This document shows positions 2,907 through 10,968 of a DNA stretch of 10,968 bases, one piece after another. Below the pieces are notes generated by a model that saw only the letters and a program-made list of their open reading frames with translations, had not been told where the DNA came from and searched no databases. This DNA comes from a virus (Duplodnaviria; Heunggongvirae; Uroviricota; Caudoviricetes). Numbering within the stretch: the first letter of the stretch is position 1; every line of letters begins with the position of its first letter. The stretch lies in IMG/VR virus record IMGVR_UViG_2724679172_000013; one strand, written 5' to 3'. The position numbers were made by a program, and so were the translations under genes.

Positions 2907-3989
2907 ATGAAAAAATTAACAGTGGCAATTTCTGCTGTAGCTGCATCAGTACTGATGGCGATGTCTGCTCAGGCAGCTGAAATTTATAATAAAGACAGTA
3001 ACAAGCTGGATCTGTACGGGAAAGTTAATGCTAAGCACTACTTCTCCTCTAATGATGCAGATGATGGTGATACTACTTATGCCCGTCTTGGCTTCAAAGG
3101 TGAAACCCAAATCAACGATCAACTGACTGGTTTCGGTCAGTGGGAATATGAATTCAAAGGCAACCGCGCTGAATCTCAAGGTTCTTCCAAAGACAAAACC
3201 CGTCTTGCATTTGCAGGCCTGAAATTTGGTGATTACGGCTCAATCGATTACGGCCGTAACTACGGTGTAGCATACGACATCGGTGCGTGGACTGACGTCC
3301 TGCCAGAATTCGGTGGTGATACCTGGACCCAAACAGATGTGTTCATGACTGGTCGCACTACTGGTGTTGCAACTTATCGTAACAACGACTTCTTTGGTCT
3401 GGTCGATGGCCTGAACTTTGCTGCTCAGTATCAGGGTAAAAATGACCGCACTGACGTAACTGAAGCCAATGGTGATGGTTTCGGTTTCTCCACTACTTAT
3501 GAGTATGAAGGATTCGGCGTGGGTGCAACCTATGCTAAATCAGATCGCACTGACGGTCAGGTCGCCTATGGTAAGAGCAAATTCAATGCCTCCGGCAAAA
3601 ATGCGGAAGTATGGGCTGCAGGCCTGAAATATGATGCGAACAATATCTATCTGGCTACCACATATTCTGAAACTCAGAATATGACCGTTTTTGGTAATAA
3701 CCATATTGCAAACAAAGCACAAAACTTTGAAGCAGTAGCACAATATCAGTTTGACTTCGGTCTGCGCCCATCTGTTGCTTACCTTCAGTCAAAAGGTAAA
3801 GACCTTGGTGTTCATGGTGACCGAGACTTAGTCAAGTATGTCGATGTCGGTGCTACTTACTACTTTAATAAAAACATGTCCACTTTTGTTGATTACAAAA
3901 TCAACTTAATTGACGATAGTAAGTTTACCAAAACAGCTGGTATTGATACTGATGACATCGTTGCTGTAGGTCTGGTTTACCAGTTCTAA
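2907..3989 (+). CDS. nmpC: outer-membrane general porin (OmpC/OmpF/PhoE family; prophage NmpC/OmpD-like), intact
   Basis: 360 aa. Signal peptide [23 protein letters not shown] then AEIYNKD; porin hallmarks including C-terminal ...[17 protein letters not shown] 7 nt upstream. Location between Q and the lysis genes on the opposite strand matches prophage nmpC. Confidence 0.9.
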
Positions 3990-5434: not shown

Positions 5435-5597
5435 GATTCCTCCTTGCTGCCAGTCGCAACCATTTTTTATCAACCAAGCTGGCGGTATATCCGAGCAGTG
5501 TTGGTATTTCGGATGGCTTCAGCTCAGGTTTACGCTTACGACGATTTGGTACTCTGTAGATGTGTCCGTTCATGACACGAATAAGCGGTGTAGCCAT
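5427..5597 (-). CDS. ninE: NinE-family protein (56 aa); not in the supplied ORF track
   Basis: Hand translation: [59 protein letters not shown] overlaps the ybcN stop (TAATG) and its 3' end overlaps the ybcO start. Confidence 0.7.
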   Translation of the reverse strand: MATPLIRVMNGHIYRVPNRRKRKPELKPSEIPTLLGYTASLVDKKWLRLAARRNHG

Positions 5598-6052
5598 TAC
5601 GCCTCCTGCTTGTCGCGCAGCAGCTGGAACTCGCAGCTCTGCGGAATAGTCAGGTGGCAGCCAATATTCACCGCCCAGGCTTCAACCTTACACAGGAAGA
5701 TATACATCTCTCCGGTATCAAGATCGGAGGTATGGCGTAACGACTGGATAGTGGTGATCTCACCGGTTACGACATCAACCAGGTCTTTGGTTTCATAACC
5801 GAGATATGTGTGTTTGAGAGCATCTTTTACCCAAGCTGGAGTGGCGAACGTTTTACCCCTGCTGATGAGGTATTCACTGATTTCGCTGTACCACATGTGG
5901 CTGAGTGCATTCTGGGAAAGACTGCGTTTCTCACGCCACGGTTTAAGCACCATGCGAAAGCATTTGCCTTCCTCCAGATAAGGCTGGATCTGCTGGCCGA
6001 TAGCGGTGAAGTTACCACGATGCAATTTGATGCCGTCTTGTGGGAGGTTCAC
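5597..6052 (-). CDS. ybcN: YbcN-like nin-region protein (151 aa)
   Basis: [39 protein letters not shown]...; apparent GTG start with GGAGG 6 nt upstream. First gene of a translationally coupled ybcN-ninE-ybcO-rusA-ylcG string. Confidence 0.8.
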
Positions 6053-6081
6053 GCTTCACCTCCGCAGAGGTCAAACGCTGG

Positions 6082-6170
6082 ATGCAAAAAATCGCAGGTG
6101 CATCTCTGCATCTGTGAAGGGAGAAGAGAGTTTGGATTGTATGTGCGCATAAACGTCCCCGTTTAGCGCA
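6082..6170. repeat. direct repeat copy A (89 bp, about 93% identical to 8016..8104); contains a palindrome and a minus-strand hairpin plus T-run
   Basis: Direct comparison of the two sequences shows 6 mismatches in 89 nt. Weaker similarity continues about 30-50 nt toward higher coordinates. Lies immediately upstream of the ybcN RBS. Confidence 0.85.
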
Positions 6171-6246
6171 GAAGTCACCGGAGTTGTTCAAGCTCCAATG
6201 GCATGATTATGGCTGGTTGATTATTGGAAATCAAATGTGCTGAAAA

Positions 6247-6756
6247 TTAGTCTGCCAAGTCTTCCTCAGTCGCAACTGGGTAATTCCAAATATCAAAAAA
6301 AGCTATAGCCTCCTGCCATTTGCTCCATAAGTTATCAAGTACTTGTGTAGGTTCCGTACTTTTAAAAACAGAATCAGCCGCATCACCGTTATGAACTTCC
6401 TCGTACAGTTCCATTATTAGCAGATTAACAAAGTACTGTTTCAACATTAATGCCTGATTACCTTCTTTCTGCTGGCTATCCTGCTTGATGAGCTCCATCG
6501 CCCGTACTAGGCACCTGATGATATCCGCTGCATCATTAACGCTCCATTCAGATCCGCGCTTATCTTTAGCTGATGAATTGGCTCTCTCAGCGCAAGCCTT
6601 TAAAGACTCATAAAGGTAAACTCTATTTTGTAGCTGCAGCGCTTTTTTTGACGTGCACCAACTTGCAAGCGCCGACCCCGCTGCGGCTAATGTGCCAAAC
6701 GCAGAAATGCCTGCTGCTATTGCACTTAAGTCGGCACTGTCAAAGTTCCACATCAT
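6247..6756 (-). CDS. hypothetical protein with N-terminal hydrophobic (TM-like) segment, 169 aa
   Basis: MMWNFDSADLSAIAAGISAFGTLAAAGSALASWC... then a mostly polar/acidic C-terminal domain. AAGGTG RBS 6 nt upstream. AT-rich upstream region with a perfect TATAAT. No family recognised. Confidence 0.6.
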   Translation of the reverse strand: MMWNFDSADLSAIAAGISAFGTLAAAGSALASWCTSKKALQLQNRVYLYESLKACAERANSSAKDKRGSEWSVNDAADIIRCLVRAMELIKQDSQQKEGNQALMLKQYFVNLLIMELYEEVHNGDAADSVFKSTEPTQVLDNLWSKWQEAIAFFDIWNYPVATEEDLAD

Positions 6757-6931
6757 CGTTACACCTTATATAAACACCCCTCAGTAATATCCAATAAGGT
6801 ATGTGAACAATCAATATAATTTATATCCGTATCGGCACATAGCGATTTTAATGCTACTGATAATGGTATCTTTTAGATTATATCGTCCAGTTCCAGTACC
6901 CGTATTTTATGAAATGGACTCGCACATTACC

Positions 6932-6972
6932 AAAAAAAATGCCAGCACTTCCGTCATCGCAGAATGCTGGCA
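6932..6972 (-). terminator. candidate intrinsic terminator 20 nt after the Bro-N-like gene
   Basis: Minus-strand RNA: UGCCAGCA ... UGCUGGCA (8-bp stem, long loop) followed by UUUUUUUU. Confidence 0.55.
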
Positions 6973-6991
6973 GTATTTCTAACTAGTGACT

Positions 6992-7600
6992 TTATTGCAA
7001 CAGATTCTGACGGAAATATGGTAACACACGACTCCACTTATCATCCTGCCACGGTTGGAATTTTACATGCGCCGTTTCTCTGGCAAGGATTTCTCGCGCC
7101 CTGTTGAGTATCCGAGGATATTCTTGTTCGATTGAAGTGAATCTACCTGCTTCGCGATGCTCTGCGACCTGAAGAAGGGGCGTAACGTTCTGGCAGGCGG
7201 TTAACATCGTATCACTTGCTCGCCATAACCAGGCGAGTGTGCAAAGTTCGTTATCAGTGAATTGTTTTGTGATTGGGGATTGTTGAACTTCTCGATCGAG
7301 AATATCCAGAACCCAGCGGCGGAATTCTTTGGCCACAGGAGTACGAGCAAACATGGCGATCAAATGGGCTCCGCGAAGGCTAAATACTCGAGACTCCTGC
7401 ATTCCACGAGGGGTGGTCACTTTGACCACCCTTGTCATCATATCTGTGAATTCATCTGAGTGCCGAGAGTAAATGCGCTGAACTGCTTTATCGTCCGCAT
7501 ATTCCAGTGCTAAACCAACTTCAGTGGCAGTAAGCCAAATTCTGTTATTGTGGCAAATCGGGGTAAACGTCGTTTTGTGGAATGCTAATTGAGTAGTCAT
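6992..7600 (-). CDS. Bro-N / KilA-N-like N-terminal domain protein (Roi/antirepressor-like), 202 aa
   Basis: N-terminal region (FHKTTFTPICHNNRIWLTATEVGLALEY...VFSLRGAHLIAMFARTPVAKEFRRWVLDIL) matches the Bro-N-type pattern by eye. GAGGTGA RBS 7 nt upstream. Domain call not verified by HMM. Confidence 0.7.
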   Translation of the reverse strand: MTTQLAFHKTTFTPICHNNRIWLTATEVGLALEYADDKAVQRIYSRHSDEFTDMMTRVVKVTTPRGMQESRVFSLRGAHLIAMFARTPVAKEFRRWVLDILDREVQQSPITKQFTDNELCTLAWLWRASDTMLTACQNVTPLLQVAEHREAGRFTSIEQEYPRILNRAREILARETAHVKFQPWQDDKWSRVLPYFRQNLLQ

Positions 7601-8015
7601 AGTATCACCTCATCAGGTTAACCATCACCACCAACGACGCCAATCGACTGGTGGTGAACTGTGTAAGGTTGGCGTAACCGGCTACTCAAACCCGGCGCTT
7701 CCGAAGAAGCCCTCACACAGCCCACCATAATTTGGGCATAGCCGTGCTTAGCGCACAAAAAAACCGCTTAACGCGGTATGCGTTGAGTAGTATCCCGGGA
7801 CGCCAATCCCGTGTGCCGATTTTGCGGCAACGCACAGAATATAGCGCCGGATAAATCATGTCGTCAACCCCAGTAAATGGACACCATGATGATCACATCC
7901 ATAGCTGCTACAACAGTTACAACTACCTCAGGCCAAAACATAACGATTTCCATATCACCTTTAGCCGCCAGACGAATAGAGACTCCCAATTCTGGCTGTC
8001 GAAGTAAAACACCGA

Positions 8016-8104
8016 ATGTAAAAAATCGTAGGTGCATTTCTGCATCTGTGAATGGAGATGAGAGTTTGGATTGTGTGTGCGCATAAACGTCCCCGTTTAG
8101 CGCA
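8016..8104. repeat. direct repeat copy B (89 bp, about 93% identical to 6082..6170)
   Basis: Same element as copy A, same orientation, about 1.85 kb away. Carries the same palindrome gcgcataaacgtccccgtttagcgc and a minus-strand hairpin plus T6. Confidence 0.85.
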
Positions 8105-8291
8105 ACCCCACCACCGGGTGTTCAGGCCGACAGTAACTATATTATTCCCTACTGATTTTTGAAAATCAAAGGTCTTTATACGTCACACGAGAGCAAATAT
8201 TTCCGAAGAAGAAACCTTTCACCTTGAAAGGATAAAGAGTTCATTTCATAAATTGAAATATTCAATAAGAATATTGCAAAAAATGAAATTA

Positions 8292-8412: not shown

Positions 8413-9915
8413 ATGACTCAAACTCCTCTATTACTTGCAATCATATTTTTATTGGTTGTTCTTGTTCTTTATATAGCTGCAATCAAACGCATCAAAAAAA
8501 TACAATTAGAATTAAGTGATAGCAATCAAAAAAATGAAGAATACAAATCTCGCTTTGCAGATTATTTTAATGTAGAAGAAGAATGTAAGAAGCTTATTGA
8601 GAAAACAGAGCAAGAATGCTCCATAATAAAAGAAGAATCCCTAAAAGTAAAAGAAAATGCCAATAATGAACTAACAAACACCATTGAAAAAATGGATGGT
8701 ATCAATAAACAAATCCAAGAGCTAAGAAGAACTTATAAAGAGAAGAAAGAAATATATGATAAACTAGTAAGGCAAATTTCTATTTATTCAGAAGATGTTG
8801 AGCTAGCCGAACTAGGATTTTACGAACCTCATTTTAATTTTGAAGATTCAGAGCAATTTAAAAACAAAATAAAATCCATCAGGGATGAACAGAAATTAAT
8901 GCTGCGGGATAAAACCCACTCTGGCGCAGTATATTGTACAACCCAATGGACTGTTGAAGGCTCTCGAGCAGAGGGTAAAAAAATGACAGACAGAAATATC
9001 AGGCTAACTACTAGAGCATTTAATAATGAATGTGATGCTGCAATTAGCAATTGCACGTGGAAAAACATCACTAAAATGGAAGAACGCATCACAAAGGCAT
9101 TTGAGGCCATAAATAAACTAAACGAGCAAAATCACATATATATAAACACTAAATACCTCAATAAAAAACTTGAGGAATTGTGGCTTACCCATGAATATCG
9201 TGAGCAAAAACAGAAAGAAAAAGAAGAACAGGCAGAAATAAGGGCACAAATGAGAGAGGAGGAGCGTGCACAACGAGAAATAGAAAAGGCCATGCAAGAC
9301 GCAGAGGCAGAAGAGCGCCGTTATAAAAAAGCAATTGAAGCTGCAAGAAAGGAAATGGAAAAAGTTACTGGTGACATGAAGCAGCGCCTCGAAAATCGCA
9401 TTGCCGAACTAGAACAGAGTTTGTCGCAGGCTGAATCAAAGCATCAAAGAGCATTATCCATGGCACAACAAACCAAACAAGGTCATGTTTATATTATTTC
9501 GAACATAGGTTCTTTTGGGGAGAATGTTTATAAAATAGGCATGACACGACGTCTTGATCCGCAAGACCGTGTAAATGAGCTCGGTGATGCATCTGTTCCT
9601 TTTATTTTTGATGTACATGCCATGATTTATTCGGAGGACGCTCCATCATTAGAAAAAAAACTACATGATGTCTTCGATAAAAAGAGAGTCAATCTTGTAA
9701 ATCGTAGAAAAGAGTTTTTCTATGTTACTCTGGATGAGATCAAAGAAGCTGTTAAAAAACACTCTGATTCAGAAATTGAATTTATTGAGACAGCAGTCGC
9801 AAAAGACTTTAATGAGTCATTGGCTATTCGTAATCATGAAAATAAAAAAAGTGACAACAGCAACTCATCAATTATACCTGAGCGAAAAACCCCAGAGTTT
9901 GCAGATGCAATTTAA
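8413..9915 (+). CDS. membrane-anchored coiled-coil protein with C-terminal GIY-YIG-like (T5orf172-type) putative nuclease domain; candidate anti-phage defence / abortive-infection protein
   Basis: 500-aa ORF, opposite strand to flanking phage genes, visibly AT-rich. N-terminal TM helix (LLLAIIFLLVVLVLYIAAI), two long K/E-rich coiled-coil-like segments, and C-terminal GHVYIISNIGSFGENVYKIGMTRRLDPQDRVNELG. AAGGA RBS upstream. Confidence 0.85.
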   Translation: MTQTPLLLAIIFLLVVLVLYIAAIKRIKKIQLELSDSNQKNEEYKSRFADYFNVEEECKKLIEKTEQECSIIKEESLKVKENANNELTNTIEKMDGINKQIQELRRTYKEKKEIYDKLVRQISIYSEDVELAELGFYEPHFNFEDSEQFKNKIKSIRDEQKLMLRDKTHSGAVYCTTQWTVEGSRAEGKKMTDRNIRLTTRAFNNECDAAISNCTWKNITKMEERITKAFEAINKLNEQNHIYINTKYLNKKLEELWLTHEYREQKQKEKEEQAEIRAQMREEERAQREIEKAMQDAEAEERRYKKAIEAARKEMEKVTGDMKQRLENRIAELEQSLSQAESKHQRALSMAQQTKQGHVYIISNIGSFGENVYKIGMTRRLDPQDRVNELGDASVPFIFDVHAMIYSEDAPSLEKKLHDVFDKKRVNLVNRRKEFFYVTLDEIKEAVKKHSDSEIEFIETAVAKDFNESLAIRNHENKKSDNSNSSIIPERKTPEFADAI

Positions 9916-10466: not shown

Positions 10467-10968
10467 ACAGTTGCTCCTTTCAGTCCGAACTTCGCTTTGA
10501 TTTCTGCGATCTTCGCCAGAGCCTGTGCACGATTTAGAGGTCTACCGCCCATGACAGGAAGTTGTTTTACTGGTTCAGGTATCGCCTCACCACGGTTAAT
10601 TCGCGCGGTCATACAAGTCAGTTCATCGGCAGCCTTGCGCCGTAATTCCGCATCAGTAAGCGCATTGGCCCGCATGTTCTGATACAGGTTGGTAACCAGC
10701 CAGTAGTGCGCGTTTGATTTCCACGGATAAGACTCTGCATCCGGATACAGGCCACGCTTCCGGCAATAGTTTGATTTCCACGGATAAGACTCTGCATCCG
10801 GATACAGGCCACGCTTCCGGCAATACTCGTAAACCATATCAACCAGCTCGCTGGTGTTTGGTAGTCCGGCAATAACGGATGCTTCTTCCCGGCACCAGGC
10901 TACAAACTGTCCGGGGGATGGCAGGAATGGTCGATTCTGCCGACGGGCTACGCGCATTCCTGCGTTAA
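10463..10968 (-). CDS. P: replication protein P (lambda P-like), 3' portion; ORF continues beyond the window edge
   Basis: ...RQNRPFLPSPGQFVAWCREEASVIAGLPN...MGGRPLNRAQALAKIAEIKAKFGLKGATV matches the lambda P C-terminal region from memory. Frame stays open upstream of the first in-window ATG to the window end. Contains a 19-aa in-frame tandem duplication. Confidence 0.85.
   Translation of the reverse strand, partial: NAGMRVARRQNRPFLPSPGQFVAWCREEASVIAGLPNTSELVDMVYEYCRKRGLYPDAESYPWKSNYCRKRGLYPDAESYPWKSNAHYWLVTNLYQNMRANALTDAELRRKAADELTCMTARINRGEAIPEPVKQLPVMGGRPLNRAQALAKIAEIKAKFGLKGATV
10712..10825. repeat. perfect tandem duplication, 2 x 57 bp, in frame within P
   Basis: 10712..10768 and 10769..10825 are identical by direct reading (gtttgatttccacggataagactctgcatccggatacaggccacgcttccggcaata). 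Encodes YCRKRGLYPDAESYPWKSN twice. Confidence 0.9.

Follow-up and report, generated by a model that had tools for sequence, protein, structure and literature searches.

The window analysed here is a stretch of 10,968 nucleotides (nt) of viral DNA (IMG/VR record IMGVR_UViG_2724679172_000013, Caudoviricetes), and it represents a DLP12/phage-82-like lambdoid prophage whose early-right operon lies on the minus strand. An earlier note on this DNA, made from the sequence alone, reported two near-identical direct repeats, and these are borne out by comparison: positions 6082-6170 (copy A) and 8016-8104 (copy B) differ at 6 of 89 positions (6085, 6095, 6104, 6119, 6125 and 6141). Each repeat is the core of a cassette of about 190 bp on the minus strand, which comprises a promoter with a dyad, two hairpins (H0 and H1), a C-rich and G-poor stretch, a third hairpin (H2) and a U-run. 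The reading which we consider fairly probable is that the repeat forms the core of a portable leader acting in cis on the delayed-early nin-Q operon, by attenuation and translational coupling, and that this leader also acts as a recombination boundary. Among the identities suggested earlier for the repeats, that of attenuator-like leaders is the best supported, as the element abuts the first nin-Q gene, has a promoter and minus-strand polarity and, in Escherichia coli K-12, has a mapped transcription start site (TSS) at its +1; the attenuation mechanism itself is our reconstruction.

Covariation of the three hairpins

The transcript of the cassette forms three hairpins that are held by compensatory evolution. 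A covariance model (CM) was built from six copies of the same length and used for aligning 95 copies. In this alignment 98.4% of the cells were standard pairs, against 83.4% in column shuffles (0 of 500 as high), and 22 of the 27 pairs had changed on both sides (8/10 in H0, 10/10 in H1 and 4/7 in H2). When the 3' partners were slid by 1-3 columns, pairing fell to 25-37%. Furthermore, every stem has been exchanged in the copies from Klebsiella phages, with the loops retained, and the stem swaps are plain in the raw sequences. An alignment made with MAFFT and RNAalifold misaligned H1, and the CM alignment was used instead. For the polarity of the RNA, the comparison of sense and antisense minimum free energies is misleading owing to G/U composition, and counts of G-U pairs against A-C oppositions were used in its place. 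The H0 stems hold 68 G-U pairs versus 15 A-C oppositions, which identifies the RNA as the minus-strand transcript.

The ungapped match between the repeats reaches 6067-6170 and 8001-8104 at 89% identity, and beyond it a weaker similarity runs on through the -10 and -35 pair, given a 1-nt indel. The earlier note had seen this weaker similarity between the -10 hexamer and the near-palindrome; what it missed there is the conserved hairpin H0 (6176-6200 and 8110-8134). In copy A, the arms CAUUGGAG and CUCCGGUG enclose the loop CUUGAACAA and are followed by the linker ACUUCU (6175-6170), as given by RNA folding and covariation. In copy B, alignments place the arms ACUGUCGG and CCGGUGGU, with three G-U pairs, around the loop CCUGAACAC; this stem is unlike that of copy A and the loop is retained, and the CM match on copy B spans 8016-8136 with 62.1 bits. 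The same pattern holds across lineages, since the H0 stem varies by lineage, the 9-nt loop YCUGARCAM is constant and the linker GACUUCU comes next. H0 is more stable in K-12 (-18.3 kcal/mol) than in copy A (-9.4 kcal/mol), and the UUCU after the hairpin makes a short U-tract.

The near-palindrome described earlier for each copy, GCGCTAAACGGGGACGTTTATGCGC, is identical at 6145-6169 (copy A) and 8079-8103 (copy B), and as RNA it folds into H1 (-12.1 kcal/mol, z = -4.3), with the arms GCGCUAAACG and CGUUUAUGCGC around GGGA; the GGGGA at the loop is Shine-Dalgarno-like. The 10-bp stem of H1 is wholly exchanged among at least six types, and the GGGA loop is always kept. Examples are GCGCUAAACG / CGUUUAUGCGC, CGCAUUUAAG / CUUAAAUGCG, GCGCUUUGAG / CUCAAAGUGC, GCAUCUGAUU / AAUUAGAUGC and GGCGCCAAGU / ACAUGGCGC. 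Every H1 type has its start codon, AUG or GUG, in the 3' arm; in copy A this is the AUG at 6150-6148.

Between H1 and H2 lies an unstructured C/A/U-rich stretch (6115-6144 in copy A, the CU-rich stretch of the earlier note), which is G-free in copy A and rut-like in composition. Across 54 unique versions it has a mean of 10.6 C and 1.9 G in 29 nt. A motif, ACAAUCNRAAC, is common to the three main types, each time in a different reading frame.

The minus-strand hairpin followed by T6 that had been described earlier is likewise present in both copies, at 6095-6114 with 6086-6091 and at 8029-8048 with 8020-8025. In copy A, H2 reads CAG.UGCA[GAGA]UGCA.CUG with an A-C mismatch (-7.3 kcal/mol), and the U6 run found by a terminator scan starts 3 nt past it. 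In copy B (H2 at 8048-8029, U6 at 8025-8020; -5.1 kcal/mol), a change of CUG to CUA breaks the outer pair. The consensus is CAG.UGCA[GAAA]UGCA.CUG with a conserved A-C mismatch, followed by CGAUUUU(C/U)UG. Compensatory variants are CAG/CUG to CCG/CGG in locus L245, UGCA[GAAA]UGCA to UGCU[UAAC]GGCA in nine H1-anchored loci and CCG.UGGC[GAAA]GCCA.CGG in Klebsiella phages. The U-run UUUU[C/U]U is found in at least 88% of the 95 diverse copies, and it is the most variable part of the reading frame described below among the E. coli copies linked to ybcN. Two longer forms of H2 were considered and rejected. A hairpin pairing the U-run with AGAAA, as in the RNAfold minimum-free-energy structure, does not agree with 5'-arm variants (UUAAC and others) that leave the 3' arm unchanged, and an extension of H2 by two outer pairs (UC/GA) involves positions that are about 90% conserved, with one-sided variation and no compensation.

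The invariant core of H2 also appears in a host immune record. In locus L021 (5398-5551; Enterobacter sp. BIGb0383, NZ_RJKQ01000002.1), a type I-E clustered regularly interspaced short palindromic repeats (CRISPR) array holds the 32-nt spacer TTGTCACAGATGCAGAAATGCACCTGCGATTT, which matches this core, and hence a host immune system has sampled precisely this conserved phage sequence.

Leader promoter and the K-12 transcript

Conservation of the element starts exactly at the -35 hexamer. The earlier claim of a TTGATT with a -10-like hexamer at about 17 bp is confirmed by a promoter scan for both copies (TTGATT-17-CATAAT at 6234-6206 and TTGATT-17-AATAAT at 8169-8141). In copy A, the -35 hexamer TTGATT (6234-6229) forms the left edge of conservation within the dyad TTGATT-N6-AATCAA (6217-6234), the -10 hexamer CATAAT occupies 6206-6211 and the predicted start is A6199, 7 nt on. 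In copy B (8141-8169), TTGATT (8169-8164) and AATAAT (8146-8141) are separated by 17 nt, the dyad is TTGATTTTCAAAAATCA and the predicted start is A8134. Among 205 unique copies, TTGATT is present in 164, the 17-nt spacer in 196 and CATAAT in 143.

For K-12, a TSS with 247 reads, assigned to ylcH, is listed at 571542(+) of NC_000913.2 (Kim 2012, PMC3415461, supplementary file 2). The upstream sequence printed with it agrees with that of locus L161 and ends in ...GGCATAATTATGTCA, which puts the start at the A that follows CATAAT by 7 nt, exactly as predicted (Kim 2012 data). The element thus combines what defines a sigma-70 promoter, hexamers at 17 +/- 1 nt and a mapped start, the latter by homology only for both window copies. 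In the numbering of NC_000913.3 we take this start to be 572319, on the basis of a 777-nt offset between the two versions derived from the coordinates of ybcN. The leader TSS was absent from the Cappable-seq and SMRT-Cappable-seq supplements that were looked through.

Term-seq data for K-12 place 3' ends at 572349/572350(+) in two growth conditions, with about 1.6-1.9 thousand reads (Adams et al. 2021). These ends fall on the first and second nucleotide after H0-UUCU, and together with the TSS they delimit an RNA of 31-32 nt, ACCGGAGCCUGAACAACUCCGGUGACUUCUG.

The dyad TTGAT-N8-ATCAA (window 6217-6234 and 8153-8169) overlaps the -35 hexamer and the spacer, and its ATCAA half-site is conserved in the spacer. 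It is kept across phages with unrelated immunity and Q types, and in phi80 and HK225 it has changed symmetrically to TTGATA...TATCAA. Such a pattern suggests a repressor of the leader promoter; the dyad could be an operator for a factor that is possibly of host origin, or it could form a weak upstream RNA hairpin. A Q-binding element was rejected by reasoning, since the dyad occurs with unrelated Q families. Sites for FNR, NsrR, Fur, IHF and Fis, in the dyad or in H2, presumably do not apply either, the half-site spacing being one that we take not to fit.

An upstream open reading frame coupled to the next gene

The position that the earlier note gave to copy A, directly before the ribosome-binding site of ybcN, is correct, and what it overlooked is an annotated coding sequence of 33 codons that runs through copy A (6150-6049, minus strand). 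This upstream open reading frame (uORF), annotated as a coding sequence in RefSeq and in record X92588, is the homologue of orf33 of phage 82 and of ylcH of K-12 (b4588, in DLP12). Its TGA overlaps the GTG (6052-6049) of ybcN, which occupies 5597-6052 on the minus strand and is the first gene of the nin-Q operon (RefSeq annotation, with a weak match to the NinB family in Pfam). In copy B, the corresponding frame (7923-8084, minus strand) has 53 codons, a degenerate 3' tail and no coupled downstream gene.

Across the collection, the uORF has 31-33 codons and its stop codon overlaps the start of ybcN, ninB or Q. An RTGA overlap of stop and start is found in about 165 of about 180 unique copies, in front of more than 25 different downstream N-termini, and the genes behind it are YbcN-like, NinB-like (HK639, KO-TP1) or Q itself (locus L138). 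In every copy the frame stays open, with 30 or 33 nt between the start codon and H2. It extends across H2 and the U-run, which is the position that a leader-peptide or uORF attenuator calls for.

The peptide, on the other hand, is not conserved, as judged from several features taken together. Variable sites are spread evenly over the codon positions (16/18/17 and 12/11/12), with a nonsynonymous to synonymous ratio of about 3.6-4.2:1. The N-terminal third is wholly different between types, and the nucleotide motif shared by the types falls in three frames. H2 variants that preserve the structure turn QKC into LNG, LIG or LSG, or delete both Cys residues; the peptide motif 'CTC' is swapped for LNG, LIG, LSG or A..G where pairing is kept. 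Finally, the 33-residue peptide gave no match to a Pfam, NCBIfam or PHROG family. A reading in which the small protein YlcH/Orf33 is the functional product, with the hairpins and the nucleotide conservation secondary, would draw on its annotation in K-12, phage 82, HK225 and RefSeq genomes, on the frame that is always open and on a Phe to Ile replacement made through three different Ile codons; set against the site spread, the substitution ratio, the lost motif and the missing families, it is very unlikely. The RTGA overlap before genes of such different kinds suggests that selection acts on the passage of ribosomes through the leader and on the coupling with the gene that follows.

Proposed attenuation mechanism

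The leader occupies the place that the strong intrinsic terminator tR2 has in lambda, and like tR2 it presumably gates delayed-early transcription towards Q. In an attenuator of this kind, H0 (with UUCU) and H2 (with its U4-6) would halt most of the unmodified RNA polymerase before ybcN or ninB and the genes up to Q, and loading of Rho on the G-poor stretch may assist the stop at H0 or H2. H1 would hide the start codon of the uORF and limit its translation. Where the uORF is translated, the ribosome would cover the G-poor stretch, melt H2 and feed the overlapping start of the next gene, which would make the leader a pyrBI-like, translation-coupled attenuator. Polymerase arriving from pR and modified by N or put would read through the leader regardless.

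The pyrBI-type and uORF-dependent Rho attenuators (mdtU-mdtJI; Adams 2021) likewise have a short open reading frame across a terminator-like hairpin and U-run and a C-rich, G-poor stretch, and the Term-seq data set of that study also maps a 3' end close to the promoter of the leader. The leader differs from these attenuators: pause sites that sense UTP, or any ligand logic, are not evident, its uORF starts inside a conserved hairpin and the next gene is coupled through RTGA.

A number of points weigh against this reading. The attenuation steps, from the hairpins and the uORF to the expression of ybcN through Q, are inferred. The CM alignment was fitted to the model structure, and the pairing counts given above are somewhat inflated as a result. 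Sequences were partly gathered by an exact match to the H2 core, which makes the invariance of H2 in that subset circular, and the H1-anchored and ybcN-anchored sets offset this sampling bias only in part. With -7.3 kcal/mol in copy A, H2 is a weak hairpin; the U-run has decayed in the K-12-type lineage (CAAUUCUUUG), and locus L014 has lost it by an in-frame 6-nt deletion; and Term-seq of K-12 lists no 3' end at the U-run, although the degraded tract there means that the missing end tells little about copies with U6. The K-12 end after H0 could reflect exonuclease trimming instead of termination. Moreover, the outer three pairs of H0 covary and yet sit upstream of the mapped TSS, which implies that H0 must also work in transcripts arriving from upstream. 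A second frame is open as well in 107 of 125 copies, and an open frame by itself is therefore weak evidence; evidence for translation of ylcH was looked for and not found.

Alternative explanations

The earlier suggestion of paralogous small RNA (sRNA) genes is the least supported of the identities then considered, and we regard it as unlikely. Each copy would be an independent gene for a trans-acting sRNA, either the 31-32 nt H0 RNA (loop CCUGAACAA) or an RNA of about 115 nt containing H0, H1 and H2 with its end at the U-run, and host or phage targets would be paired through the conserved H0 loop or the variable C-rich stretch, in the manner of prophage anti-sRNAs with their variable seed and conserved 3' module. 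The real promoter and the short, discrete RNA end in K-12 would suit such a gene, as would the conserved loops on variable stems and the variable single-stranded segment ahead of a conserved hairpin and U-run; the same goes for copy B, which keeps all three hairpins with no coupled gene. An sRNA would, however, leave it unexpected that about 165 of about 180 unique copies keep the RTGA overlap with the next start codon and that 30 or 33 nt always separate the start codon of the uORF from H2; such an overlap fits a cis-acting leader and not a free-standing sRNA gene. A search of the window for the complement of the H0 loop, TGTTCAGG, gave matches no better than chance, and the Term-seq reads are low (about 1.6-1.9 thousand). 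The element is fused to the next gene and has a weak terminator, as opposed to the stand-alone unit with a strong terminator that characterises an Hfq-type sRNA.

Nor does the element belong to a known sRNA family. The prophage RNAs AgvB/AsxR and Pas resemble it in being short, in having a variable segment with a conserved hairpin and U-tail and in occurring in several copies per genome, but they sit downstream of Q and pR' in the moron site, measure 51-60 nt, have Rfam families of their own (RF02702 and RF02703) and are not fused to a downstream open reading frame. AgvB, AsxR, Pas and STnc100 were rejected as identities, as they sit downstream of Q and their Rfam models have no match to the element.

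A cluster of plain early terminators, the nin-type terminators of the earlier note, is an equally improbable account. It would be the equivalent of lambda tR2-tR4 and would make Q depend on N, with the promoter incidental or of slight relevance and the open reading frame an annotation artefact in a structured region. The position does correspond to that of lambda tR2, which lies between ren and ninB, after the replication genes and right before the ribosome-binding site of ninB. The mapped 3' end after H0, the conserved H2 and U-run, the peptide that is not conserved and the covarying outer H0 pairs upstream of the TSS (so that read-through transcripts from further upstream matter) would all suit terminators. 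Only part of the claim stands, nevertheless, since the sole 3' end mapped in K-12 lies after H0 and the hairpin with the T-run is weak. Three hairpins with conserved loops are needless for a plain terminator, and this account leaves unexplained the promoter conserved from the -35 hexamer with its mapped TSS, the start codon fixed in the 3' arm of H1, and the frame kept open with a near-universal overlap of stop and start. HK639 has the element although it is reportedly reliant on put RNA and not on N. Lambda tR2 itself differs from the leader, being a single strong GC-rich hairpin with U5 that has no promoter, uORF or sequence similarity, and the CM finds no match in lambda. A search for a nut site (boxA CGCUCUUA with at most one mismatch, plus boxB) found no boxA inside either copy, and phages with unrelated early regulators have the same H1 loop.

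A stronger version of the leader hypothesis also deserves mention, in which the leader, as a new class of phage regulatory RNA, responds to a signal and opens a way to Q from its own promoter that does not need N, with the 31-nt H0 RNA and its invariant loop perhaps a separate trans-acting product; we think this improbable. H1, or the conserved A-C mismatches in H2, might in that case sense temperature, pH, a host protein or translational status. If it were true, the leader would contribute to the control of spontaneous induction or of lysis timing, and of how the nin recombination genes are expressed, in the roughly half of E. coli genomes that have it.

Finally, H0 and H1 could be seen as a factor-independent processive antiterminator RNA like HK022 put, which would carry polymerase to Q. 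The likeness lies in two stem-loops (about 60 nt) directly past a sigma-70 promoter of a lambdoid early operon, upstream of terminator-like signals and Q, and in the presence of the element in the put-type phage HK639. It is a very unlikely explanation. Published put stems have 'multiple indents and bulges' and a triplex (PMC9378689), whereas the helices here are perfect over 10 bp and have no conserved bulges. Many K-12 transcripts end right after the first hairpin, H0, which is the opposite of antitermination, and a lysogen would be put at risk by a constitutive route to Q that does not need N. A CM search of HK022 27000-40751 (the early/nin region) with filters off gave a best score of 10 bits (E = 0.49) and thus no similarity, putL being possibly outside the stretch searched.

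Recombination at the leader and the anti-repressor cassette

Although the attenuator leader is the preferred account of what the repeat does, the presence of two copies in the window is explained by recombination. The suggestion that the repeats are conserved boundary sequences is upheld by three loci, L037, L076 and L065, which match the window from 10768 to 8016 (P/ren through copy B) at 97-99% and then go on from 6170 into ybcN, the two alignments overlapping by exactly the 89-nt repeat. These loci lack one repeat and the module, and their junction lies inside the repeat: the promoter and H0 of copy B are fused to the 3' end of copy A. A unit of 1,934 bp, made up of one repeat and its cargo (6171-8104, minus strand), has therefore been gained or lost by recombination within the leader.

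The 415-nt stretch after copy B, which had been described as having no long open reading frame, is non-coding and contains structured RNAs with significant Rfam matches. On the minus strand, the promoter of isrK (7867-7838) is followed by isrK itself (7829-7757; 58.7 bits against a gathering threshold of 50), which has its own hairpin and U7 terminator, and by the C4 antisense RNA (7732-7647; 74.8 bits against a gathering threshold of 45). A match to the C4 target c4-a1b1 at 7844-7792 scores 39.6 bits, below the gathering threshold of 46.7. The combination of C4 RNA and isrK ahead of the anti-repressor gene is that of a P1/P7 immI-type C4 antisense system, and the stretch is accordingly read as an immI-type (Gifsy-1 isrK-like) control region for ant. 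The ant gene (7600-6992, minus strand) encodes Bro-N and P22AR_C domains and matches Ant families in PHROG. A strong hairpin with U8 at 6972-6928 (minus strand), directly after the ant stop codon, is likely to be an intrinsic terminator; the surrounding 73 nt fold at -23.2 kcal/mol. This hairpin was passed over by a simple scanner, and Rfam gave a spurious mir-725 match there (23 bits, E = 0.45). Given such a terminator, the 169-aa gene that follows (6756-6247, minus strand; phrog_1779, function not known) probably has its own promoter, for which 6933-6904 is a candidate.

At other loci, repeats of this kind enclose further cargo sets besides the Bro-N and 169-aa module of the earlier note. 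Eight two-copy loci with four different cargo sets were identified. The isrK-C4-ant cassette with the 169-aa gene is present in the window, L003 and L079, with a HEPN gene and a 133-aa gene in L068, L157 and L150, and with a 195-aa gene in L069. In L138 (6829-11919), the cargo is a tail-fibre-like gene (Gp34_trimer and Peptidase_S74) and a 620-aa gene with an S-type pyocin/colicin-E3-like 'Cytotoxic' domain, and the downstream leader copy is joined by ATGA to a 271-aa Q antiterminator gene and not to ybcN or ninB. In L068 (3723-4519), and also in L157 and L150, the HEPN-domain gene (138 aa) and the overlapping 133-aa gene replace the 169-aa gene; this pair is possibly a HEPN/MNT-type toxin-antitoxin system.

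The upstream (B-type) copies share a degenerate 3' tail. The junction at 8015-7873 accompanies the B-type copies of the ant cassette, being found in L068, L150, L069 and L079 with indels between them. The ant cassette is also found without a B copy, and the homology then begins at window position 7872. In our reading, the isrK-C4-ant cassette lies upstream of the resident leader and carries part of a leader (H1 to H2) at its own left end. A cassette with a partial leader next to the resident one can be inserted or deleted by homologous recombination in the conserved sequence, and the window has two copies because an anti-repressor cargo cassette recombined in at the leader.

Modular evolution of lambdoid phages, as in the Susskind-Botstein view, involves conserved 'linker' boundary sequences between mosaic modules. 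The leader resembles such linkers: it is a short sequence conserved in otherwise mosaic phages, it marks a point where some loci have a module and others lack it, and hybrid 5'/3' combinations are found there. It differs in that the boundary itself is a structure-constrained regulatory RNA, and the function of this RNA accounts for the conservation of the boundary.

Distribution, earlier annotation and significance

The search of Rfam and of genome collections assigned the element to no Rfam family, found it to recur widely and showed that paired copies flank varied cargo. A 201-nt region of copy A matches 2,938 of 5,426 complete E. coli genomes (54%) and 37 phage records, including 82, phi80, HK225, HK639 and Klebsiella and Enterobacter phages, and its identity to phage 82 is 91% over 176 nt. 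An exact 21-nt core is present in 33 species-representative genomes (Enterobacter, Citrobacter, Lelliottia, Trabulsiella and others) and in at least 120 IMG/VR contigs. All of the 79 viral loci retrieved via the YbcN protein have the element upstream. A cmscan of the whole window against Rfam 15 (permissive filters, E <= 1) gave nothing at 6067-6240 or 8001-8175, and the Rfam matches in the window are limited to C4, isrK, c4-a1b1 and the spurious mir-725.

Parts of the element have been known since 1996, namely the open reading frame, the promoter hexamers and the dyad, all of them as annotation. The phage 82 record X92588 (1996; Mahdi et al. 1996) already marks a putative -35 and -10 of the leader and labels the H1 palindrome a 'possible regulator-binding site', and the phi80 record names the palindrome 'IR4'. 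Phage 82 orf33, K-12 ylcH and phi80 IR4 are thus the same element, annotated as a hypothetical protein gene and a DNA dyad. This annotation does not include the covarying three-hairpin RNA, the lack of conservation of the peptide, the portability of the leader before ybcN, ninB and Q, or the use of the leader as a recombination boundary. Neither Rfam 15 nor searches of full texts by gene name and by sequence returned an account of any of these.

Lambdoid phages are the textbook antitermination system, and their nin region is treated as 'terminators plus accessory genes'. The leader, which is found in Enterobacter, Citrobacter and Klebsiella prophages too and has been annotated only as a 33-aa hypothetical protein, offers a point at which control of Q can be tested directly, and with it control of lysis and, in related phages, of late genes of the Shiga-toxin type. 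As DLP12 carries the leader, such tests are possible in K-12 itself. Furthermore, the leader exemplifies how a functional sequence can serve as a homology arm for cargo exchange, the cargo being of anti-repressor, HEPN-type or pyocin-like kind.

Other features of the window

The gene order, followed along the early-right operon, begins with P, ren, an opposite-strand DUF4041/T5orf172 gene (8413-9915), copy B and the 415-nt non-coding stretch; it continues with the Bro-N/P22AR_C anti-repressor gene, the 169-aa gene and copy A, and ends with ybcN, ninE, ybcO, rusA, ylcG, quuD (Q), a porin gene and the lysis genes. The porin gene (2907-3989, plus strand) is OmpC/NmpC-like and lies between Q and the lysis genes, an arrangement that is the same in DLP12.

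The plus-strand gene at 8413-9915, between ren and the leader, encodes a 500-aa protein with DUF4041 and T5orf172/MUG113 domains, for which some RefSeq records use the label 'SNIPE associated'. The gene resembles a moron of the defence type, and it is broken by IS5 in three genomes (H38-H40). The gene for the replication protein P contains a perfect, in-frame tandem duplication of 57 bp (19 codons) at window 10712-10825, and this unit is apparently single in the collinear loci L037 and L076.

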